Source: Candidatus Riflebacteria bacterium HGW-Riflebacteria-1
Lineage (GTDB): Bacteria > Muiribacteriota > Ozemobacteria > Ozemobacterales > Ozemobacteraceae
DNA: 64,000 bases
NCBI GenBank assembly: GCA_002839445.1
Contig: PGYB01000001.1
Location: forward strand, 282,735 to 346,734
Direction: 5' to 3'
In this document: piece after piece, positions 40,145-53,015 of the stretch
Layout: every line of letters begins with the position of its first letter
Numbering within the stretch: the stretch's first letter is position 1
Program-made: the position numbers and the translations under genes
Notes under the pieces: model-generated
What the model was told of the DNA's origin: nothing
Seen by the model: the letters and a program-made list of their open reading frames with translations, nothing else
The model's database searches: none

Positions 40145-40356
40145 ACTGATCTGTAACCTCCAGAAATTGAGCTGATATAAAGTGCTCTCCCGTTGTATCG
40201 GCAGATTTGTTTATGTAAATTAGAAGTCTTTTAAAAACGCCGGCAAACCAGAATATGATTTTTATGCAGATTTTTTTGCAGATTTTGTTCACAAATATGC
40301 GAAAGCTGCCGAAAAGGTTGAAGATTTTACATCGTTATCTTATTCTCAGGACAGTT

Positions 40357-40965
40357 ATGAAAGAAATCAGCAAAGCACTTGCCTGTATAGTCACACTCAT
40401 ACTCTCCGGCCTCTATTCGCTGGTCATGTATCCGCTGTATCTCTGCAGAAACCTGGGTTATCATTTCAGGTCGCCTTCGGTACTGTTATACGCCACTATT
40501 TTCTTTATCGTCGACCGCTACACCAAGCTGTTGGTGGTTAATCATTCGCATCAGCTTCCGATAAAGGTGATCGACGATTTTTTCACACTGACCTATGTTA
40601 AGAACCCTGGCGTTGCCTTTGGCTGGTTTCCCGACTGGCGGTTGCCACCCATCATTATGGCGCTGACCATGATCATCATCATCTCTTACTACAGTCTCAA
40701 ACTGCCAGAAGAAGAGCGCCTGACGCGTTGGTCGCTGGCTCTGCTCGTTGGCGGCGCGATTGGCAATCTTTATGACCGCGTCGTTTATGGTTTTGTCGTT
40801 GACTTTTTCCTGTTTCATTTTGGCTCATTTGATTTTCCGGTGTTCAATATCGCCGACATCGCAATTGACGTTGGAGTGTTCATGCTGTTCGTAGACATCT
40901 TTTTCCTCAGCCCCGATGAAGATGAGGAAAACAACAATGAAAGCCTGGCGTCAACCTCGGCCTGA
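40357..40965 (+). CDS. lspA: lipoprotein signal peptidase II
   Basis: NPGVAFGWF and YDRVVYGFVVDF...FPVFNIADIAID motifs. The start is uncertain; the ORF extends to 40255. Confidence 0.75.
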   Translation: MKEISKALACIVTLILSGLYSLVMYPLYLCRNLGYHFRSPSVLLYATIFFIVDRYTKLLVVNHSHQLPIKVIDDFFTLTYVKNPGVAFGWFPDWRLPPIIMALTMIIIISYYSLKLPEEERLTRWSLALLVGGAIGNLYDRVVYGFVVDFFLFHFGSFDFPVFNIADIAIDVGVFMLFVDIFFLSPDEDEENNNESLASTSA

Positions 40966-40971
40966 CCAGGG

Positions 40972-41760
40972 ATGTACCCGATACTTTTTTCGACGCCCTG
41001 GTTCAATGTCTACAGTTATGGCCTGTTGATAGCTCTTGGCTACGCGCTGGGAACAATCCTGATCCTCAGAGAAGCACGCCGTGAAGGTCTAAATAGCGAA
41101 GCAATTTTTGATATGCTTCTTTTGCAGCTCGTTGTGGGCATATGCGGATCAAGACTGCTGTTTGTTCTCGAATACACCCCGGAAAAGCTCAATTTTAAAG
41201 ATTTTTTTGCGTTTGAGCAGGGCGGCCTGACCTTTTACGGTGCCGTAATCAGCAGCTTCATCTTTGACCTGCTCTATCTCAAGTTTCGCAAAATACCATT
41301 CTGGAAGGTCATGGACTGCATAGGGTTTGGCCTGCCGGCAGGCATTGCCGTGGCCAGACTTGGCTGCCTGATGAATGGCTGCTGCTATGGAACCAGCAGT
41401 GATTCCCCATGGGCAATGACTTTTACCGATGCCGGGCCCGGCGGCCATCACCCGACCCAGCTCTATGAGTCTCTCGGCGCCGTTTTTATCTTTTTGCTGC
41501 TCAGGTATTTACGTGCCTGGCGCCGCAATTATGGCGAAATATTTCTGGCAGGAACGGCTTTATACGGTATTATCAGATTTTTTATCGAATTTGTCAGGGC
41601 GGAAAATCCTGTGGTAATTGCCGGCTTGACCATGGCCCAGATCATAGGAATACTGGCTCTGGCAGCCAGCGCGGTCGCCTGGAAAAAAATTGCCGCCACA
41701 AAAGACATGCGGGTCATGCCAAACCTTGATACTGTTGAAATACGGCCACGCCATGATTAA
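40972..41760 (+). CDS. lgt: prolipoprotein diacylglyceryl transferase
   Basis: MYPILFSTPWFNVYSYGLLIALGY..., ARLGCLMNGCCYG, HPTQLYES signatures. Confidence 0.85.
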   Translation: MYPILFSTPWFNVYSYGLLIALGYALGTILILREARREGLNSEAIFDMLLLQLVVGICGSRLLFVLEYTPEKLNFKDFFAFEQGGLTFYGAVISSFIFDLLYLKFRKIPFWKVMDCIGFGLPAGIAVARLGCLMNGCCYGTSSDSPWAMTFTDAGPGGHHPTQLYESLGAVFIFLLLRYLRAWRRNYGEIFLAGTALYGIIRFFIEFVRAENPVVIAGLTMAQIIGILALAASAVAWKKIAATKDMRVMPNLDTVEIRPRHD

Positions 41761-42541
41761 TGGAATCTATTTCGGGCTGCCCTACTACACTTACGGGATT
41801 CTGGTCCTTATCGCCTTTCTGGCCGGAATATGGCTGTTCAGGCGCAACGCCCGTCAACTGAGCCTTGCCGTTCCAGACCTTGTCGATCTCTCTCTGGTAA
41901 TAAGCATTTCGGGTCTGATTGGCGCACGAGCAGCTTACATATTGCTTTTTCCCGAACAGTTCAGCACCATACGTGACTATCTGGCTATTCACGAGGGCGG
42001 CCTGGTATTCTACGGTTCCTTGATCGGCGCAGTAATTGCGACGGCAATATATTGTCAGGCTACAGGGTACAGTTTCAGAAAGCTGGTCGACCTGATTGCG
42101 CCAGCAGCAGCGCTTGGGCACGCAATCGGCCGTCTGGGATGCATCAACAACAACTGCTGTTATGGAGCAGTAACAACCACATACTCTATTTACCGTCTGC
42201 CTGGCGATCCGCCAGGGCAGTTCAGACACCCAACACAGATTTACGAGAGTCTGTTTCTGCTGGTTCTGCTGTTTGTTCTCAATCGCCTGCTAAGAATTTG
42301 TTACGCTGGAACATCAACTAAAAGCGGTCTTGTCGCAGGAATTTATCTTGCGGCCTATTCTTTTTTCAGATTTCTGATAGAATACATTCGAGGCGATTCA
42401 CGCGGCGGCTTTTACACCGCCTATAATTTATCGCCATCTCAGATAACCGCAGTTATTCTGCTATTGTGTTCGGCAGCCTGTATCGCTTATGCTGTCAAAT
42501 ATCCTATTGCTAACCGGGGAAAAACCGATGAACAGAGTTGA
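41753..42541 (+). CDS. lgt: prolipoprotein diacylglyceryl transferase, tandem paralog
   Basis: MINGIYFGLPYYTYGILVLIAF..., GRLGCINNNCCYG, HPTQIYES. ATG overlaps the first lgt stop (ATGATTAA). Confidence 0.8.
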   Translation: MINGIYFGLPYYTYGILVLIAFLAGIWLFRRNARQLSLAVPDLVDLSLVISISGLIGARAAYILLFPEQFSTIRDYLAIHEGGLVFYGSLIGAVIATAIYCQATGYSFRKLVDLIAPAAALGHAIGRLGCINNNCCYGAVTTTYSIYRLPGDPPGQFRHPTQIYESLFLLVLLFVLNRLLRICYAGTSTKSGLVAGIYLAAYSFFRFLIEYIRGDSRGGFYTAYNLSPSQITAVILLLCSAACIAYAVKYPIANRGKTDEQS

Positions 42542-44610: not shown

Positions 44611-45459
44611 GTGCAGACTGCCGATTTAAAGACTGTCATGCGCAAACATAAGTATTTTACCAGCTTTATTCTTCTCGCCCTGGTCGTTGTTTTTCTCAAC
44701 GGCGCAAGTATTCGACGTTCGGTTGAGAGGTCTGTTAAAGATCCGGTGCCGAAAGGCCGGCCCAATTACGATGCAATGTTTGCCGATGGCAAGCTGAGAA
44801 TAGCGGTATTCTGGGGATGGGATCACCCGCGCGACACAATCATGGGCTCTTTTCCTGCTTTCGAAACACTTAACGGCAAGCGCCTGTATTACAAAGGCAA
44901 GCCGGTGCTCATCGAGATCGGCATGATCACCCAGATTAACGAAAAGCCAAAAGCGATCTTCAAGTCAGCTCTTGAAGACAAAACTATCGACATGGTCATA
45001 TATTCAGGGCACGCCCGCTACGGCAAGGGCATGGCCTTTGAATCGATGGAAGACATCTTCAAGTGCGGCAATGGCGACCTGGTCGAAGATCGGCACGTTA
45101 CACCAGCCAAAGTTTTCAAGGCAACCGCAGATGACCTTGACGCGACAAATTTCCCGCAAAGCTACAAAATTGTCATGCTCAATTGCTGCGATTCACAGGG
45201 GCATTTCCGCCAGAGCTGGGCAAGACGCTTCAAAGAATGCGGGGCTCCCGTAGAACTTTTGACCGTTGAGTTTCCAGTTTTCAACATCGCAGATCACCGC
45301 CGCGTGCTTAACCTGCTACGCGATGTGCTGGCCTTTGCTGACTGGAAAACGATCAAGAAAAACTACGATTCAGAGATCCACCGCCGCAAAAATCGCCTGA
45401 TAATCGACCCGGTATACAACCACAGCGATGATGATTTTGCCATGGACAGCGCCTTTTAA
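44611..45459 (+). CDS. secreted/anchored protein with a candidate caspase-like (clan CD) His/Cys dyad
   Basis: IDMVIYSGHARYGKG and KIVMLNCCDSQG resemble the metacaspase (Y/F)SGHG and D-x-C-H-S-G blocks. The start is uncertain (GTG 44611 or ATG 44638). Confidence 0.35.
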   Translation: MQTADLKTVMRKHKYFTSFILLALVVVFLNGASIRRSVERSVKDPVPKGRPNYDAMFADGKLRIAVFWGWDHPRDTIMGSFPAFETLNGKRLYYKGKPVLIEIGMITQINEKPKAIFKSALEDKTIDMVIYSGHARYGKGMAFESMEDIFKCGNGDLVEDRHVTPAKVFKATADDLDATNFPQSYKIVMLNCCDSQGHFRQSWARRFKECGAPVELLTVEFPVFNIADHRRVLNLLRDVLAFADWKTIKKNYDSEIHRRKNRLIIDPVYNHSDDDFAMDSAF

Positions 45460-45606: not shown

Positions 45607-45635
45607 TTGAACCGCAGTGTTTTTTGCTGTACACT
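45607..45635 (+). promoter_or_regulatory. putative sigma-70 promoter of the K+ channel gene
   Basis: TTGAAC, 17-nt spacer, TACACT. The ATG at 45645 is about 10 nt from the -10, so the leader is short or absent. Confidence 0.3.
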
Positions 45636-45644
45636 GAGCGGCAT

Positions 45645-46652
45645 ATGAACATTCAACAGCGCATGCTCAACCTGACCTTCACACTGCTTTTTCTGCTGCT
45701 GTGCGGGACAATTGCCTATCGCGTCGTTGAGGGTGACCACTGGACCATGCTCGATGGTCTGTTCATGACGGTAATAACTCTATTCACAGTTGGCTATTCA
45801 GAGGTCCACACTCTTTCCAACAATGGGCGCCTGCTCACGATAGTTCTGATACTTCTTGGCGGCGGCTTCATGGCCTATGCCGCCTCAACCATTGCACAGA
45901 TGCTTTTCGAAGGAAAACTTCGCGAAATTTGGGGGCTCAAAAAAATGCGTAAACAGATCGACGAATTGAAGAATCATTACATCATATGCGGTGCTGGAAA
46001 AACGGCACAGGAGATCATTAAAAGCCTTAAGAACAGCGCCCCCAGGCAGTTTGTCGTCATAGACATTGATCACAGCCGCATTGACAAGTTGCAGCAGGAT
46101 AATATTTTTGCGATCGAAGGCGACGCGACTTCTGATGAAATACTCATGGATGCTGGCATTGAGCGGGCAGCCGGGCTTGCGGTAACTTTGCCAACCGATG
46201 CCGACAACCTCTTTGTCACTCTTTCGGCGAAGGGCTTTAAGAGTGACCTCTTCGTAGTTGCCAAGGCAGAAAAAATAGACAGTATAGCCAAGTTACGCAA
46301 AGCAGGCGCCAACAAGGTTGTTTCTCCGAACATTATAGCTGGAGCCCGTATGGCGTCGATGCTTTACCGTCCATCGGTGGTTGACTTCATGGATGCTGCA
46401 CTGGCAGGCGACAGCAAGGCAATGATGATGGAGGAATTCAGGATTCAAGGTCAATCCTATCTTGATGGCAAAGCAATTAAAGATGCCGAAATCAGGCAGC
46501 GCTCAGGCGCTATTATAGTATCGGTGCGACGCGACAATGAAACCACAGTGAATCCGCTGCCAACGTTCGTTTTTAAGGCATGTGACATACTTGTGGTTCT
46601 GGGTACTGATGAGCAGATCAAGAATTTTTCACCTTTAACAGTAGTTAAATGA
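45645..46652 (+). CDS. RCK-domain (TrkA-N/TrkA-C) gated K+ channel, MthK/Kch-like
   Basis: 2-TM pore with TVGYS selectivity filter, GAGKTAQEI Rossmann (TrkA-N), C-terminal TrkA-C. Confidence 0.75.
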   Translation: MNIQQRMLNLTFTLLFLLLCGTIAYRVVEGDHWTMLDGLFMTVITLFTVGYSEVHTLSNNGRLLTIVLILLGGGFMAYAASTIAQMLFEGKLREIWGLKKMRKQIDELKNHYIICGAGKTAQEIIKSLKNSAPRQFVVIDIDHSRIDKLQQDNIFAIEGDATSDEILMDAGIERAAGLAVTLPTDADNLFVTLSAKGFKSDLFVVAKAEKIDSIAKLRKAGANKVVSPNIIAGARMASMLYRPSVVDFMDAALAGDSKAMMMEEFRIQGQSYLDGKAIKDAEIRQRSGAIIVSVRRDNETTVNPLPTFVFKACDILVVLGTDEQIKNFSPLTVVK

Positions 46653-46671: not shown

Positions 46672-49600
46672 ATGAATTACCGATTTTCGCTAGTGGTTCT
46701 ACTAATTTTCGCAACAGCAGCTGCTCTGTTGGGTGCCAGCCAACAGGAAATCACACAGATGCAGATGCGCAACAATATACCTGCGCAGATGCAAACACAG
46801 AGCGCAAACACTGATTATAACAGCGTGCCGGCGGCCACAATTAATTCAACGAATGCCTCAGAAAACCCGGATTTTGTGCAGAGCCAGACAAAAGCAGCAA
46901 CGACCAGCATAAAAACGGTTAAGACGCTGGTTCCCTATGAAGACCTTTACAAGGTGCTCCAGCAGGATATTGGCAAGTATTTTATTTTGCCGATAGAAGA
47001 GTTCGAAAAGCTCAAATCGGCAAAAGAAGCCTGGCTGGCCTCAGCGAGCAAACCAGTTACTGCGCCGCCACCGTTGTCTTACCAGATCAATTCAGCATCA
47101 ATAGACGGTCAGATTGAAGAAAATTTTGCGCGCCTGAACGTAACTTTCAAGCTCGAAACTTTTACCGACGCCTGGCATGAAATTCCTCTTCTCTGGGGCA
47201 GTCTCGCCGTTTCAGCGGTCAGACTGAATGATGCGCTCACTACTCTCAAGACCAGCTGGATCGACACCAACACACGTCAGGTGCAGTTTGGCAAGATCAG
47301 CAAGCGCAGCAACATGATGAACATGTATCAGGCTGCTTCTGGCGGCAGCGACAGCCTGAGCCAGAATAACTGGAAAGACACTATGTTTTCTTTGCCGGTA
47401 TTTGGCAAGGGCACACACGAATGCCAGATTTCATTTGTTGTGCCGATTCAGAACATCGAAGACCTCTTTACCCTTCAGTTCAGCATGACGCGCATACCGC
47501 TCACCTTTATCGAGCTGCAGGCAAAGGATTTCATTCTTTCCATCGACAGCAGCAGCTTTAAGGATTTCACTGTCAGCGAGCAGCCGCAGGCAAAGGGCTG
47601 CACCTTCATTGGCTGGCTCGGCGCCAACAGCGACATCTCGATAAAATGGCGCAGAAGAGTTCTACGTGCAGCGATCATAGCAGATCCGGTCATTGAGCCA
47701 ACACCCGACATCGACGCACCCGTTTCAACTGAACCAGCACAGGTCAAGCCCGATCGCGTAACTGCACCCATCAAACCAATTATCTACGCACGTTCGCAAA
47801 CTCTGGTCACTCTAGGCGAGACCGCCATACATTCATACAAAATATTTGACTTTAAAATCAGCAAGGCCCCGGTAACCCAGTTCTATTTCAGCATTCCTGC
47901 CGGGGTCGAAATAGTTTCGGTAACTGGCGACCGCCAGGTCAACCAGCGCATGTTGCTTGAACACGGCCAGAGAAGGCTGCAGGTAGAATTTCAGGCTGGC
48001 CGCGAAGATGCCTGCCAGATCACTATCGCTTATGAATCTCCGGTAAATATGACCAGCGCCACGATAGGTATTCCAGAGGTTACTCCACTGCAGATAGAGC
48101 GAGAACTTGGAACCATAGCGATTGAGGCACTTACCTCAATTGAAGTGCAACCCGGAAATGATGAAAAAGAGCCACTCAAAAAAGGCGTTTTCCCGATCGA
48201 CCCGCAAGAAGCTCCGGTGACAATCAAAGCACGCGCCACCATGCCCCTGCTGCTGGCTTATCGCCACAACACCAGCCCTACCGGCATAATGCTCGGAGTA
48301 AAGCGCTATCAGGATGTGCCGCAGCAGACAGTAGTTGCCGACAGTCTTGAGGTCAAAACGACATTTACCACCAACAAGACAAGCAACTCACTGATCAGCC
48401 TGAACATCCGCAACAACAACAAGCAGTATCTTCAGCTGCAGCTCGCTTCCGGGTCTGAGATCGTTTCGGCCTTCAGAGGCGGCCAGGCTGTAAAGCTGGT
48501 TGCCGGCAGAAACGACGGCAAAGTGCAGATTCCGCTTGAAATGAGCCAGGTAGTGGGCGAAACGGTTCAGCAGAACCTGCAGATATTTTTAAAGAACCCG
48601 GTCAGCGAAGTCAAATGGCGCGGCGGCCTGGAATTCTCGCCGCCGTTGATCGACATACCGATTTCAAGATTCACCTGGTTTCTCTATGCACCAGAAGACT
48701 ACCATCTCTATGATTTTTCCGGCACGGTCAAAGACGCCAGAACGCGCAAAGACCCGTTTTTCTTCAGAGGTTTCATGCGCCTGCTTAAACTGGCGTGGGG
48801 AATCGTGACCAGCCCTGACGCAGTCTTTGGCATTGGCTTTTTTGTTTTTCTGGTATTGCTGATCGTGTCGAGAAAGCTGCTGTTCGCCATTCTCAAGGGC
48901 ATCTGGGAAATGATCTGCGCGATTTTCGGCATGCTGTTTTCCGGCAGAGGTTTCAGGCTGGGCGAACTCATGGTAGTCATCGCAGTAATCGCTGTTCTGG
49001 CGGCAATTGCCACGCCCAATTTCCGCAAAGCGCGCGAACAAGCGCGCGATAAGGCCTGCATGGCCAACATCAGGGTTCTAACCGGTGCCGTTGAAATGTA
49101 TAACATGGACAAAACACCGATGATGACTAATCTAAACATGGAACTCCTGATAAAGAACCATTTTCTCAAGAGCCCAATCATTGGAGCAGAAAAGGACTGT
49201 CGCTATGTAGCGAGCGGTAATCTGAACGAAGACGGCCAGATATACTGCCAGCTGCATGGAAACCTGGAAGGACAAAGACCTTCTGAAACAAAAGCAAGAA
49301 CGATGGCAAGTGCTGATTATGGTGCCAAGTCAATGCTGTCAAAGAGTGATGTCGCAATGGAACAGCAGGCAATGTCAGGCAGATCTGCCGACGCACCGGC
49401 AGTCGGGCAGAAACCCGGCTTTGGTGCCGCCAGAACCCATGGCATGCTGCCAATCAACACCAAATTTGTCATGACGAGAAACTACTATATGCTTGAGCGC
49501 GATCTGGTTATCTGCGACGTGGCCAGCAATGGCGCACTGATCGCCAATTCAACCAGCCCGACAGTAAGAGTCAGTTATCTGCACAATTCTGTAGTGCGCT

Positions 49601-52308
49601 CGGCCGAAGTTATTGCCTTTGTAATAGCCTTGTTCAGCGGTCTCTACTTTGTTTCTGGGGCATTCTACAAATATTCTGCCAAAATCACTTTTGCCGGTCT
49701 GATAATCGTTCTGCTCTCAATCGTAGACTTCAAGATCGGATCAGTCGGAGACAGCGCGAATACCGGCCTCTGGTTAGCACTTGGCGGCGCGTTCATCTGG
49801 AAATTCTTCTGGATACTCAGTAAGCTCAATCTGTTCAAGAGTGATGGCAGCGACCAGATACCACCTTCGATTCCACCTTCGACACCAGGAACGAGAAAAT
49901 TCAGTAATGGCGAAATGAACGCCGGCGATGTATTCGGCACCCGGCCTGGTGCTGGCTGCACCGGCATTAAAACACTGCTGCTGCTGCTTTTCATTCTGAC
50001 AGCGCTGGCGGTTTTGCCACTGGCGGCGCAGGAAACTCGTGAAGTCAGAATCATGGCGCCATTCAAGGATCTGTCAAGCATACTCCCGACAGGAGAACGT
50101 TCTGTAATCATACCAGAGAGCGACTACCGCTATCTGACCGACATCAAGGTTCCTGAAAAGCCTGAACAGTTTGCACCACAGAGTTATCAGTTCGGCTCAG
50201 TAATTTACCGTGGACACATTGAGGAGCGCGGCGTCAGGTTTGTTGCAGAATACCGATTGCAGCTCTTTAACAAAGAATGGAAAAAGATCGAACTGCTGTC
50301 ACCTGAGGTGATTCCATCAAAAGCGAGCATCAATGGGGCGGCGCTGGCGCTGACCCTCATGGAATCGCGAGGAATGGCGGCATACGGCTTTTTGACCGAT
50401 GCAACCGGCAGCGTTGACATCAGCGTAGAATTCTTCGTGCCAATGGATTCAAGCGAATTCCGGCACACCCATCGCTTTACCCTGCCGACACTTCCGGTGT
50501 GCATATCCACGCTGCATCTGACGGTTGACGAAAAAGACTGCGAGGCCTGGATCGACCCGGGAGTTCTCGGCAAAGCAGAGCGTGTGGACAACAAGTCGAT
50601 TTTCAAAGCTATTCTTCCACCAACGGCGGCGGTAAAGGTAGAGATTTACCGGACAACGGCACAGGCGGTTGCTGTAGAAACAACAGAACCTGAAGAAGTT
50701 GAGCCAGACAAGCCGGTGGTAATTGAAGAAAAGACCAGGATCAGCGTCTATCAGCTTGCCATGCTCTACTTCAGAGAAGGATTTGTCAGCGGCACGCATG
50801 TATTCGACATAGACATCAAGGGCGGCAGCGGAATTTCGAGCCTGAGCTTCATTCTGCCCGACCGCATCAGAATACAGAAGATTGACAACCGTCTCATCGA
50901 CGACTGGAAAATCAACGAAGACAGTCAACCACGCAGACTGGAAGTAGTTTTCAAGTCGCAGATCAGGGGCAAAACCCAGCTGACTATCGAATATGAAGAT
51001 GACATGCAGAATCTGAAAGACGAAAGTTATAAATTTGGCGAAATACACGTTGCCCATGCTGAGCGTTCTTCTGGAATAATCGGGATTGGCTGCCTGCAGA
51101 CTCTTGAAATTCTTGCCAATGAAACGCCGCAGGGCTTTGATACGCTTAACCCGGCCGAGTTTCTCAACAATTGGAAGCTCGAGCGCCCCGAAAAGACGCC
51201 TTACGCATTCAGATTTGTCAGGTATCCCGACGGCGTTGCCGAGGTTGGGGCTCCGGATCCGACCGTTCCCGTCAACTATTCAACTGCGGTCGCGACGAAC
51301 AGGTTGACCCTTACTATAACCCGCCCTGAAGATATCAGCGTGCAGACAGCAACGATTGATCGCGCAGAAGCGATGACCCTGCTCAATGAAGACGGTTACA
51401 TGATCACCAGGGTTGTTTATGAGGTTCGCAACCATTCACAGCAGTTTCTCAAGGTTCGCCTGCCGAAACTCGAGAGTTACGAGACCGAACTCTGGAGCAC
51501 CCAGGTCGCTGGTCTGGCGGTTCGCGCCGGCTTTGACAAAGAGAACGGTGTTTACAATCTGCCGATAATCAGTTCTCAGTCTGAGAGGGGCGAGTCAAGG
51601 GCGTTTCCGGTCGAACTGGTTTTCACAATACGCACCGGCAAATCGCTGCAGGCATTCAACCCGATAAAAATGGAACTGCCGGCAGCACACCTGCCGATCA
51701 GCGAATTGAGCTGGGTTCTTTATCTGCCGGAAGGTTATGAGCTGATGCGTGAAGTCGGCAATCTCGACCGCTCAGTAAAAGTATCTGACCTCAAGTTTCT
51801 CGACAAGCCCGATTACTTTTCGAGCGTATCAAGTGCGGTTAACATGCAGATGCGCCAGAAGGGCAATTATCAGCAGACACAGCAACAGACGCAGAGTTCA
51901 TCAGAAAAGAATTTTGGCATGGCCGGCATGCTTCCGGTCAAGTTCAATATCCCGAAAACCCAGTGGGCGACGCACTTCACCATGTTGCAGATCGAACCAG
52001 ACAGCAGACCACCGTTCATAGACGGCATGCTGGTCAACCCGCGCAAGGGCAAGGGTTTTGCCTTTCAGATACTGATGATTCTCGCCGGCATGCTGGCAGC
52101 GTTTGGACTGGTGCGTCTGGCTATAACGCGGCGCTACGGCTGGTTTATCCTGCTGGCTGTGCTTGGCATCATTCTTACTCTGGCGATCTACCTCAAGCTG
52201 TATCAGGCCGACCATTTCTTCCAGATGGGACTGTCGGCGGCACTGATCACCTGGCTGCTGTTCAGGTTCTTCGCCTGGCACCCGTCAGAAGAACAGAAGG
52301 GAGCCTGA
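46672..52308 (+). CDS. giant 1878-aa multi-module protein: secreted module A, internal prepilin-type domain, polytopic linker, paralogous module C
   Basis: Uninterrupted 5637-nt ORF. Layout: N-terminal signal peptide, ~740-aa module, TM, canonical prepilin segment (aa ~754-870), four predicted TMs, a second signal-like segment (aa ~1082), a second ~750-aa module, three C-terminal TMs. Confidence 0.6.
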   Translation: MNYRFSLVVLLIFATAAALLGASQQEITQMQMRNNIPAQMQTQSANTDYNSVPAATINSTNASENPDFVQSQTKAATTSIKTVKTLVPYEDLYKVLQQDIGKYFILPIEEFEKLKSAKEAWLASASKPVTAPPPLSYQINSASIDGQIEENFARLNVTFKLETFTDAWHEIPLLWGSLAVSAVRLNDALTTLKTSWIDTNTRQVQFGKISKRSNMMNMYQAASGGSDSLSQNNWKDTMFSLPVFGKGTHECQISFVVPIQNIEDLFTLQFSMTRIPLTFIELQAKDFILSIDSSSFKDFTVSEQPQAKGCTFIGWLGANSDISIKWRRRVLRAAIIADPVIEPTPDIDAPVSTEPAQVKPDRVTAPIKPIIYARSQTLVTLGETAIHSYKIFDFKISKAPVTQFYFSIPAGVEIVSVTGDRQVNQRMLLEHGQRRLQVEFQAGREDACQITIAYESPVNMTSATIGIPEVTPLQIERELGTIAIEALTSIEVQPGNDEKEPLKKGVFPIDPQEAPVTIKARATMPLLLAYRHNTSPTGIMLGVKRYQDVPQQTVVADSLEVKTTFTTNKTSNSLISLNIRNNNKQYLQLQLASGSEIVSAFRGGQAVKLVAGRNDGKVQIPLEMSQVVGETVQQNLQIFLKNPVSEVKWRGGLEFSPPLIDIPISRFTWFLYAPEDYHLYDFSGTVKDARTRKDPFFFRGFMRLLKLAWGIVTSPDAVFGIGFFVFLVLLIVSRKLLFAILKGIWEMICAIFGMLFSGRGFRLGELMVVIAVIAVLAAIATPNFRKAREQARDKACMANIRVLTGAVEMYNMDKTPMMTNLNMELLIKNHFLKSPIIGAEKDCRYVASGNLNEDGQIYCQLHGNLEGQRPSETKARTMASADYGAKSMLSKSDVAMEQQAMSGRSADAPAVGQKPGFGAARTHGMLPINTKFVMTRNYYMLERDLVICDVASNGALIANSTSPTVRVSYLHNSVVRSAEVIAFVIALFSGLYFVSGAFYKYSAKITFAGLIIVLLSIVDFKIGSVGDSANTGLWLALGGAFIWKFFWILSKLNLFKSDGSDQIPPSIPPSTPGTRKFSNGEMNAGDVFGTRPGAGCTGIKTLLLLLFILTALAVLPLAAQETREVRIMAPFKDLSSILPTGERSVIIPESDYRYLTDIKVPEKPEQFAPQSYQFGSVIYRGHIEERGVRFVAEYRLQLFNKEWKKIELLSPEVIPSKASINGAALALTLMESRGMAAYGFLTDATGSVDISVEFFVPMDSSEFRHTHRFTLPTLPVCISTLHLTVDEKDCEAWIDPGVLGKAERVDNKSIFKAILPPTAAVKVEIYRTTAQAVAVETTEPEEVEPDKPVVIEEKTRISVYQLAMLYFREGFVSGTHVFDIDIKGGSGISSLSFILPDRIRIQKIDNRLIDDWKINEDSQPRRLEVVFKSQIRGKTQLTIEYEDDMQNLKDESYKFGEIHVAHAERSSGIIGIGCLQTLEILANETPQGFDTLNPAEFLNNWKLERPEKTPYAFRFVRYPDGVAEVGAPDPTVPVNYSTAVATNRLTLTITRPEDISVQTATIDRAEAMTLLNEDGYMITRVVYEVRNHSQQFLKVRLPKLESYETELWSTQVAGLAVRAGFDKENGVYNLPIISSQSERGESRAFPVELVFTIRTGKSLQAFNPIKMELPAAHLPISELSWVLYLPEGYELMREVGNLDRSVKVSDLKFLDKPDYFSSVSSAVNMQMRQKGNYQQTQQQTQSSSEKNFGMAGMLPVKFNIPKTQWATHFTMLQIEPDSRPPFIDGMLVNPRKGKGFAFQILMILAGMLAAFGLVRLAITRRYGWFILLAVLGIILTLAIYLKLYQADHFFQMGLSAALITWLLFRFFAWHPSEEQKGA
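48931..49275 (+). other. embedded prepilin-type (GspG-like) domain with cryptic leader MLFSGRG|FRLGE
   Basis: In-frame ATG 48931. GFRLGELMVVIAVIAVLAAIATPNFRKAREQARDKACMANIRVLTGAVEMYNM is a paralog of the pilin at 24541-24906. G-1, F+1 and E+5 are intact. Confidence 0.6.
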
Positions 52309-52310
52309 CC

Positions 52311-53015
52311 TTGCTTATTGAAGACCCGACGACCGATGTAACGCCAAAAGGCCATGGCAATGAACTTAAGGGCGTACAGGGCATGATAATTCCCTTCATT
52401 CTGCTCGGTTTTGCGCTCTATTTCTGGAACTCTGCCCTGCTGCTGCCCATCAAGTATCTGACCGTGTTCTTTCATGAGCTTTCGCACGCACTGGCGTCGG
52501 TTTTAACCGGAGGCGAGGTTGTGCATATTGAAATTAACTCGAACCAGGGTGGCCTGGCGGTTACCCGGGGCGGCTGGCGTTTTATCGTTCTCAGCGCTGG
52601 CTATCTGGGCAGCCTGCTGTGGGGAAGCTTGATTCTGCTGGCGGCGGCGAAAACCCGTCATGACCAGCACATCACTGCCGGACTTGGCATTCTGCTGCTG
52701 CTGGTTACGGCAATATGGGTGCGCAATCTTGAGGGCGTCATCATCTGCGCGCTGACAGGGTTCGGGCTGCTCGGCATCGCGGCTTATTCCACAGAAAAGG
52801 TCTGCGACCAGTTCTTGAAGTTTCTCGGGCTGACATCATGCTTCTACGTGCTGTTTGACATCAAGAGCGATCTGATTGACCGCTCAATCAGTGTCTCTGA
52901 TGCATACAGAATCTCGGAAATGCTTCATGTGCCGGACTGGCTGGTGGGTGTTGTCTGGCTGGTAATTGCAGGTATAATAACCTGGAAAGTTCTTTACTGG
53001 AGTCTTGAAGAATAA
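52311..53015 (+). CDS. M50B-like HExxH polytopic membrane metallopeptidase
   Basis: TTG start 3 nt after the giant ORF's stop, AAGGGAG RBS. FFHELSHAL within the first TM region, about six TMs. The track ORF begins earlier at 51963, inside the giant gene. Confidence 0.5.
   Translation: MLIEDPTTDVTPKGHGNELKGVQGMIIPFILLGFALYFWNSALLLPIKYLTVFFHELSHALASVLTGGEVVHIEINSNQGGLAVTRGGWRFIVLSAGYLGSLLWGSLILLAAAKTRHDQHITAGLGILLLLVTAIWVRNLEGVIICALTGFGLLGIAAYSTEKVCDQFLKFLGLTSCFYVLFDIKSDLIDRSISVSDAYRISEMLHVPDWLVGVVWLVIAGIITWKVLYWSLEE

Follow-up and report, generated by a model that had tools for sequence, protein, structure and literature searches.

A giant Riflebacteria envelope protein built from two paralogous membrane-anchored units with an embedded pilin-like domain

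Type IV pilins, the pseudopilins of type II secretion systems (T2SSs) and modular pilins, among them ComGC, GspG and PilA, are recognized by a class III signal, in which Gly at position -1, a hydrophobic residue at +1, Glu at +5 and about 20 hydrophobic residues follow a short basic N-terminal leader of ~5-30 amino acids (aa), and by an extended alpha-1 helix carried on a small head. The DUF1559, or H-X9-DG, proteins of Planctomycetes are likewise prepilin-like. Among anchored envelope and luminal proteins, BatD (PF13584) of the aerotolerance operon comprises a signal peptide, a beta-rich periplasmic ectodomain and a C-terminal transmembrane (TM) anchor, and subunit 1 of oligosaccharyltransferase (OST), known as Ost1 in yeast and ribophorin I in humans (Ribophorin_I, PF04597), carries two tandem beta-sandwich luminal domains on a single C-terminal TM helix. 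Here we describe a protein of 1878 aa, hereafter the giant, encoded by an uninterrupted reading frame at positions 46672-52308 (+) of a 64,000-nucleotide stretch of the Candidatus Riflebacteria bacterium HGW-Riflebacteria-1 genome (contig PGYB01000001.1, positions 282,735 to 346,734), the whole of which is referred to as the window. We find that the giant arose by head-to-tail duplication of an entire membrane-protein unit, that a pilin-like domain appears to have been inserted into the first copy, and that the unit defines a very large, uncharacterized family.

The first half of the giant holds an ectodomain that we term module A (aa ~81-700; 46912-48771, +), delimited using BLASTP, hhalign, an AlphaFold2 (AF2) model and Foldseek, and the second half holds module C (aa 1124-1705; 50041-51786, +). 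BLASTP of aa 1-740 against aa 1082-1878 returned a single collinear alignment of 669 columns with 21% identity (E=3e-19), and an hhalign comparison of module A and module C profiles from 36 orthologs gave a probability of 99.9% (E=9e-37) over 542 columns. The similarity extends far past the short blocks from which the original prediction had proposed an internal duplication, and that proposal is borne out. Sub-domain borders were taken from the three beta-rich domains seen in the AF2 models, which place beta-sandwiches at aa ~130-330 (A1), ~366-535 (A2) and ~545-690 (A3) of module A and at aa ~1165-1330 (C1), ~1350-1520 (C2) and ~1540-1705 (C3) of module C. Each sub-domain matched its positional counterpart (A1-C1, 1.4e-13; A2-C2, 9e-14; A3-C3, 2e-14), and none of the 12 non-corresponding pairs showed significant similarity. 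Both modules are all-beta arrays, and relatives from the Planctomycetes-Verrucomicrobia-Chlamydiae (PVC) group hold additional copies of one sub-domain, so that a likeness arising from generic Ig-like or beta-sandwich repeats, without duplication at the level of the module, had to be weighed. A strict 1:1 pairing in order (~1e-13 to 1e-14), non-significant off-diagonal pairs and one alignment that covers the whole modules speak against such repeats, and because the sub-domains match only their positional counterparts, this explanation is ruled out with near certainty. On sequence comparison, modules A (aa ~80-700) and C (aa ~1124-1705) are therefore highly significant collinear paralogs.

The four sequence blocks originally quoted for the two modules lie at aa 89, 1131, 664 and 1676. 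Module A terminates in the family motif ISRFTWFLYAPEDY and module C in ISELSWVLYLPEGY, and these end blocks had been described as almost identical and as standing just before the TM anchors. No motif in the family is more strongly conserved than this C-terminal block, whose W and P are near-invariant among 19 diverse sequences, but the identity between A and C is only 9/19 residues, and in module C the block is located ~100 residues ahead of the TM anchors, with a helix and a beta-hairpin in between.

The product of the reading frame matches, at 100% identity, CVV41_01350, a hypothetical protein of Candidatus Riflebacteria bacterium HGW-Riflebacteria-1. Independent metagenome assemblies supply about 40 full-length orthologs (1808-1906 aa, identity down to 35%), and for this reason the fusion is considered genuine. 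An assembly or annotation artifact that joins three genes (module A, pilin and module C) could be suspected from one metagenome-assembled genome (locus L009), in which the giant is called as two open reading frames (ORFs). The break in question (L009:9100-9300) falls in the cytoplasmic linker between the units and yields genes of 1054 and 745 aa; it could reflect an error of sequencing, a pseudogene or a gene naturally split where the units meet. It consists of a TGA at a conserved Trp codon together with a frameshift, i.e. a lesion and not a gene boundary. Since the frame is uninterrupted in the ~40 independent assemblies and thousands of PVC relatives are also single ORFs, we give the artifact explanation hardly any credence. 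The start of the GenBank model (P0001, 1859 aa) is probably mis-annotated, as it begins 19 codons downstream of the ATG at 46672 and so lacks the signal peptide that is present in all orthologs.

That signal peptide occupies aa 1-22 (46672-46737, +; hydropathy and ortholog alignment) and is followed by a variable Q/N-rich linker to ~aa 80. A signal-peptide-like hydrophobic start had been proposed for both modules, and hydropathy places such segments at aa 1-26 and aa 1093-1123. Within the latter, the internal signal-peptide-like segment proper (aa 1093-1119; 49948-50028, +; hydropathy and ortholog alignment) combines a basic n-region with an h-region of 18 aa and a c-region of the small-x-A type (LAA|QE), directly precedes the conserved start of module C (REIRVMAPFKEL), and is kept in 36/36 aligned orthologs. 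Two AF2 models, covering aa 1124-1878 (model 1; predicted local distance difference test, pLDDT, 76) and aa 27-1060 (model 2; pLDDT 72, with module A mostly at 80-90), both run from an all-beta ectodomain through a poorly ordered linker to a two-stranded beta-hairpin and three TM helices, with hairpin plus helices at aa 938-1051 (first half) and aa 1766-1868 (second half). The unit-1 tail (49483-49824, +; model 2) is composed of a hairpin at aa 938-971 (GMLPINTKF) and helices at aa 972-1051, and the unit-2 tail (51967-52275, +; model 1 and hydropathy) of a hairpin at aa 1766-1788 (GMLPVKFNIP) and helices at aa 1795-1868.

Two points count against this anatomy. The predicted template modeling scores (pTM) of both models are low (0.35-0.38), and thus say little on inter-domain geometry, and the hairpin match inside the giant is weak, with the motif FG..GMLP[IV]K.KF aligned by hhalign at E=0.06. 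When 186 two-unit relatives were searched with a hidden Markov model (HMM) built from the C-terminal hairpins alone, 39 proved to carry the element in their middle region (best E=2e-10). Because the within-protein match reaches just E=0.06, the shared hairpin tail is based on the two AF2 models and this family-level HMM. The repeat unit accordingly opens with a signal peptide of the cleavable type and an all-beta ectodomain of three domains (~600 aa), from which a linker leads to the beta-hairpin and the membrane anchor of three helices. The giant contains two such units head to tail, unit 1 at aa 1-~1055 and unit 2 at aa ~1093-1878, the product of a duplication of the complete unit. Taken as a set, the architectural conclusions, i.e. 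the duplication, the unit anatomy and the pilin insertion treated below, are held with high confidence.

Between module A and the unit-1 tail lies a type IV pilin or pseudopilin-like domain (aa 761-~865; 48952-49266, +; NCBIfam, PDB profile matches and AF2). It begins at a class III (prepilin) signal motif, G760|F761-R-L-G-E765 (48949-48966, +), in which E765 is followed by LMVVIAVIAVLAAIATP and a 21-residue hydrophobic stretch opens the pilin helix. The Gly at -1, the hydrophobic residue at +1, the Glu at +5 and the hydrophobic stretch of a class III signal are all present, as is the extended alpha-1 helix on a small head; AF2 predicts a 51-residue alpha-1 helix (aa 763-813) leading to a small beta region of short strands with Cys843 and Cys859. 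The giant thus has in common with ComGC, GspG, PilA and the modular pilins a G|FxxxE motif, ~21 hydrophobic residues, a 51-residue alpha-1 and a Cys-pair head. NCBIfam matches to ComGC (7.8e-10; 38.8 bits against a cut-off of 75), GspG (1.6e-8; 34.7 bits against 88.9) and PilA all fall below the curated cut-offs, and the pilin profile matched PDB chains of PilA-N (3e-11), GspG (3e-10) and PilA, within a range of 3e-11 to 1e-4. Many orthologs carry a precomputed, weak match to PF26697, which was considered as the family of the modules and rejected, as PF26697 is ComGC_C and covers the pilin part.

The giant differs from described pilins in the setting of this domain. In place of a short basic leader, 759 residues stand ahead of the cleavage position (signal peptide, 600-aa ectodomain and TM helix), so that the class III signal is 760 residues in, behind a folded periplasmic module and a TM helix, and the C-terminus of the pilin is joined to three TM helices and to a second unit of 750 aa. 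The preceding TM helix is an extra one and, together with an amphipathic K/R-rich cytoplasmic segment, spans aa 715-759 (48814-48948, +; hydropathy, orthologs and AF2); through it the chain is predicted to reach the cytoplasmic side before the pilin starts. The original prediction had the duplicated modules flanking the pilin. The duplication stands, but since both units end in a hairpin and three TM helices and most two-unit relatives have no pilin, the pilin and its one extra TM helix (aa ~715-865) appear to be an insertion in the juxtamembrane linker of unit 1 and not a piece between the copies. Paired with the pilin helix, this extra TM helix makes a membrane hairpin, and therefore the topology downstream is unchanged. 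Hydropathy and charge distribution, read by the positive-inside rule, are consistent with periplasmic ectodomains, pilin head and beta-hairpins, and with a G|F site at the cytoplasmic face.

The insertion point is used by more than one kind of pilin. In the Planctomycete-type relatives P0048-P0050, a full DUF1559 (E=4e-44) is found at exactly this site between the modules, whereas the head of the giant is ComGC/GspG-like, so that the type of pilin differs by lineage at one site. Because ComGC/GspG-like and DUF1559 domains share this insertion point, a recurrent functional coupling between the family and pilin-like domains is suggested. By HMM, the pilin-like segment between the modules is present in 29 and absent in 103 of 137 two-unit representatives, and several of the PVC inserts are without G-1/E+5.

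To delimit the family, a profile was built from the conserved C-terminal core of the module (alignment A3, 19 diverse sequences), and it retrieved 9,554 clusters at 50% identity with E<=1e-3, of which 3,741 had E<=1e-30. The best 150 clusters are nearly all two-unit proteins of 2,100-2,800 aa with about six matched stretches, corresponding to two modules that each carry extra copies of one sub-domain. Sampled members are all annotated as hypothetical protein and come from Verrucomicrobiota, Limisphaerales or Lentisphaerota, and Planctomycete-like bacteria are also among the hosts of the two-unit proteins. The giant itself contains two such cores (aa 366-700 and aa 1350-1712), each followed by the hairpin and TM helices, and the core is marked by the motifs R-N-x3-QFL-x-V-x-LP and W-x-[LV]-[YF]-x-P. 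Standalone homologs, for which the original prediction had suggested a search, were found in P0046, P0055 and a gene of 1143 aa. P0046 (1051 aa) follows the plan of the unit, with signal peptide and ectodomain, a motif resembling the hairpin (LHIDLPTQGLRYRF) and, by eye, three hydrophobic stretches. The 1143-aa gene (L006:3471-6902; core HMM E=4.5e-88) is a single-unit paralog directly upstream of the two-unit P0049 on a Planctomycete-like contig, which thereby holds three units in a row. In a crude neighbor-joining tree, N-copies and C-copies fell into distinct clades, both among the Riflebacteria and in one PVC group; its deep branching is compatible with one ancient duplication or several. 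We found no description of the family in the literature, and it is an uncharacterized, very large family in which single-unit, two-unit, and two-unit plus pilin forms occur.

P0046 is preceded (L005:3885-7017) by a gene for an extracytoplasmic function (ECF) sigma factor and, with a start that overlaps it, one for an 820-aa protein that has an N-terminal Cys-rich anti-sigma-like motif. This arrangement hints at envelope-stress regulation of some family members.

A relationship of the modules to BatD-like or DUF-type anchored proteins had been put forward with reservation. In its favor are a similar layout of signal peptide, beta-rich periplasmic ectodomain and C-terminal TM anchor, the TPR repeats of the single-unit relative P0055, and the ECF sigma/anti-sigma pair adjoining another single-unit relative. 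PF13584 gave no match in the giant at E<=1 or in 10 diverse members at E<=5, nor did NCBIfam, and none of the 10 loci inspected had Bat-operon genes (MoxR, DUF58, vWA BatA/B) beside the family member; the 64-kb window is likewise free of Bat genes. The proposal finds no support, and divergent BatD proteins are a very improbable identity for the modules. More generally, modules A and C had no Pfam match at these thresholds, NCBIfam scans of the giant and relatives placed no family on the modules, and none of BatD, DUF4139, Ribophorin_I or Peptidase_M1_N appeared in the Pfam/NCBIfam scans of the giant and the 10 relatives, which gave only pilin-related or TPR matches. The module core profile matched nothing among PDB sequences at E<=10.

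At the level of fold, the best Foldseek matches of the module A model were to OST subunit 1 (6c26_1, 6s7o_E, 6ezn_A and 8b6l_O), with 8-11% identity in the structural alignments; fold matches of the modules generally had ~10% identity and low TM-scores. Like OST subunit 1, the giant combines a tandem beta-sandwich luminal or periplasmic fold with a C-terminal TM anchor. It differs in that a module has three domains rather than two and is anchored by a hairpin and three TM helices rather than one, in having neither a Pfam Ribophorin_I nor a PDB sequence match, and in its bacterial context, which has no OST. Likeness to the N-terminal beta-sandwich domain of M1 aminopeptidases (M1-N; tricorn factor F3, LTA4 hydrolase and ERAP1) and to TAF2 is limited to a single sub-domain, and the giant has neither the catalytic thermolysin-like domain nor the HEXXH motif of these enzymes. 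In the predicted models, the modules thus resemble Ost1 and M1-N at the level of fold, which is distinct from demonstrated homology.

Whether the giant acts as one polypeptide or as several bears on any mechanism. In Riflebacteria, the prepilin motif, the internal signal peptide and an abutting M50B protease gene are conserved, and for this reason the sequences suggest, but do not prove, that the precursor is cut into pieces in this clade. The motif G|[FIV]xxxE occurs in 34 of 42 Riflebacteria-type proteins, and GKG|FRLxELMIV is near-invariant in orthologs that are otherwise 41-75% identical. In every aligned ortholog, the c-region of the internal signal peptide keeps a small -1 residue along with a -3 residue of a permissible kind, and is compatible with signal peptidase I. 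The third element is a Peptidase_M50B-like membrane metalloprotease with an HELSH motif (52311-53015, +; Pfam E=3.4e-49), whose probable TTG start at 52311 lies 2 nucleotides (nt) past the stop codon of the giant, with AAGGGAG upstream. This gene adjoins the giant in six of seven Riflebacteria loci (the window, L003, L004, L007, L008 and L009), with giant identity down to 41%, and begins 2-10 nt after the stop codon of the giant or, often, overlaps it by 4 nt.

From these elements a route of processing may be sketched. Prepilin peptidase would cut at G760|F761, separating module A, with a TM anchor of its own, from a pilin that would remain attached to the anchor of unit 1; unit 2 may be released by signal peptidase I at ~A1119|Q1120; and the adjacent, probably co-transcribed M50B intramembrane protease may join in the processing. 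One gene would then supply A, tethered pilin and C at a fixed 1:1:1 stoichiometry, and through its tethered pilin the complex could attach to a type IV filament or a type II secretion machine. The paralogous units could act as a fused pseudo-heterodimer derived from a homo-oligomeric single-unit ancestor, forming a large periplasmic scaffold on a six-helix membrane base, and the modeled Ost1/M1-N-like fold would suit a role in binding extended chains of polypeptide or glycan within the envelope.

Several observations weigh against cleavage. Prepilin peptidases are known to act on short N-terminal leaders, and we know of no precedent for a 760-aa leader with a folded periplasmic domain before a class III signal. 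The G-1/E+5 residues have decayed in 8 of the 42 Riflebacteria-type proteins and in several PVC relatives, so prepilin cleavage is not essential to the family, most members of which, as noted above, have no pilin at all. No type IV pilus, T2SS, prepilin peptidase or assembly ATPase genes occur in the 64-kb window, and M50B is adjacent neither in the PVC loci inspected nor beside P0040, the most divergent ortholog, which also lacks the prepilin motif.

The same architecture might instead remain unprocessed, as a single polytopic polypeptide of ~10 TM helices in which the pilin alpha-1 is one arm of a TM hairpin, the internal signal peptide is an uncleaved TM helix, and the pilin head is a further periplasmic domain. 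The loss of G-1/E+5 in Riflebacteria-type proteins and its degeneration in many relatives from Verrucomicrobia and Planctomycetes in which the helix is retained, the majority of two-unit relatives without any pilin, and the absence of pilus-machine genes nearby all fit this alternative, as does the retention of the covalent fusion in thousands of clusters, which suggests that linkage itself is useful. Harder to accommodate are the near-invariance of GKG|FRLxELMIV, which is difficult to explain for a plain TM helix, the conservation of the signal-peptide c-region in all orthologs, and the membrane protease gene that abuts or overlaps the stop codon of the giant. We hold the unprocessed polypeptide to be a real possibility that falls short of an even chance, on about the same footing as processing. 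The reading as a processed polyprotein, with its predicted cleavages, is in turn tentative and in part doubtful; its fullest form, in which an internal prepilin site, a signal peptidase site and a dedicated M50B protease yield two Ost1-like subunits and a tethered pilin that couples them to a type IV filament machine, is an unlikely proposal. As a whole, the explanation that we favor, by a narrow preference, is a duplicated two-unit scaffold with an inserted pilin that is probably processed in the Riflebacteria clade.

The neighborhood of the giant is conserved within Riflebacteria in the order unknown gene, K+ channel, giant, M50B. A TrkA-type K+ channel gene (45624-46652, +) ends 19 nt upstream of the giant and is kept in L003, L004 and L007. 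Upstream of it is a 282-aa membrane-anchored ORF (44611-45459) with counterparts in L003, L004, L007, L008 and L009; a caspase-like identity, taken by eye from YSGHA...NCCDS, was dropped, as there was no Pfam match at E<=10 and PDB sequence matches were non-significant (best E=0.11). The giant is surrounded by housekeeping genes: upstream of it the window contains lspA, two lgt paralogs, rluD, a HAMP protein, the 282-aa membrane protein and the K+ channel, and downstream Peptidase_M50B, an adenylate cyclase, a GIY-YIG protein and a LuxC/LuxE/GNAT cluster. Neighborhoods outside Riflebacteria had no pilus or secretion machine and no conserved partner.

Other genes of the window deserve mention in their own right. 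The two lgt paralogs (Pfam LGT, 5e-60 and 1e-52) lie in tandem behind lspA at 40255-42541 and overlap slightly, and L003 has the same pair. At 58358-63330 (-), an AMP-binding domain is fused to a LuxC-like acyl-CoA reductase, and genes for a LuxE-like acyl-protein synthetase and a GNAT protein complete the cluster, which is conserved beside the giant locus in L003, L004, L008 and L009. Two large ORFs of 724 and 425 aa at 12383-15909 (-) had no Pfam match at E<=1e-3. The flagellar P-ring gene FlgI (16150-17262; E=2e-104) is located away from other flagellar genes, beside TPR proteins and rho, and its presence is consistent with a diderm envelope in the host.

The giant combines known kinds of molecule, a tandem-duplicated envelope protein and a modular pilin, and no new kind of molecular system is demonstrated by it. 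From the standpoint of type IV filament biology, a strongly conserved prepilin-peptidase motif so deep within a polytopic protein comes as a surprise, and if the motif is used, it would broaden the substrate range of prepilin peptidase and provide a natural membrane-tethered pilin. If the polyprotein reading is true, the giant would hold the first internal class III signal peptide and offer the first functional handle on a family of ~10,000 clusters, which could even be prokaryotic relatives of OST subunit 1. The predicted Ost1/M1-N-like fold may be a first hint towards periplasmic polypeptide or glycan handling. The repeat unit and domain anatomy are now defined for a family whose 9,554 clusters have no Pfam or NCBIfam model on their modules and whose members rank with the largest proteins that many Verrucomicrobiota, Lentisphaerota, Planctomycete-like bacteria and Riflebacteria encode. 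Because it is huge, unmodeled and so prominent among the largest proteins of its hosts, this family is probably an important, unrecognized component of their envelopes.

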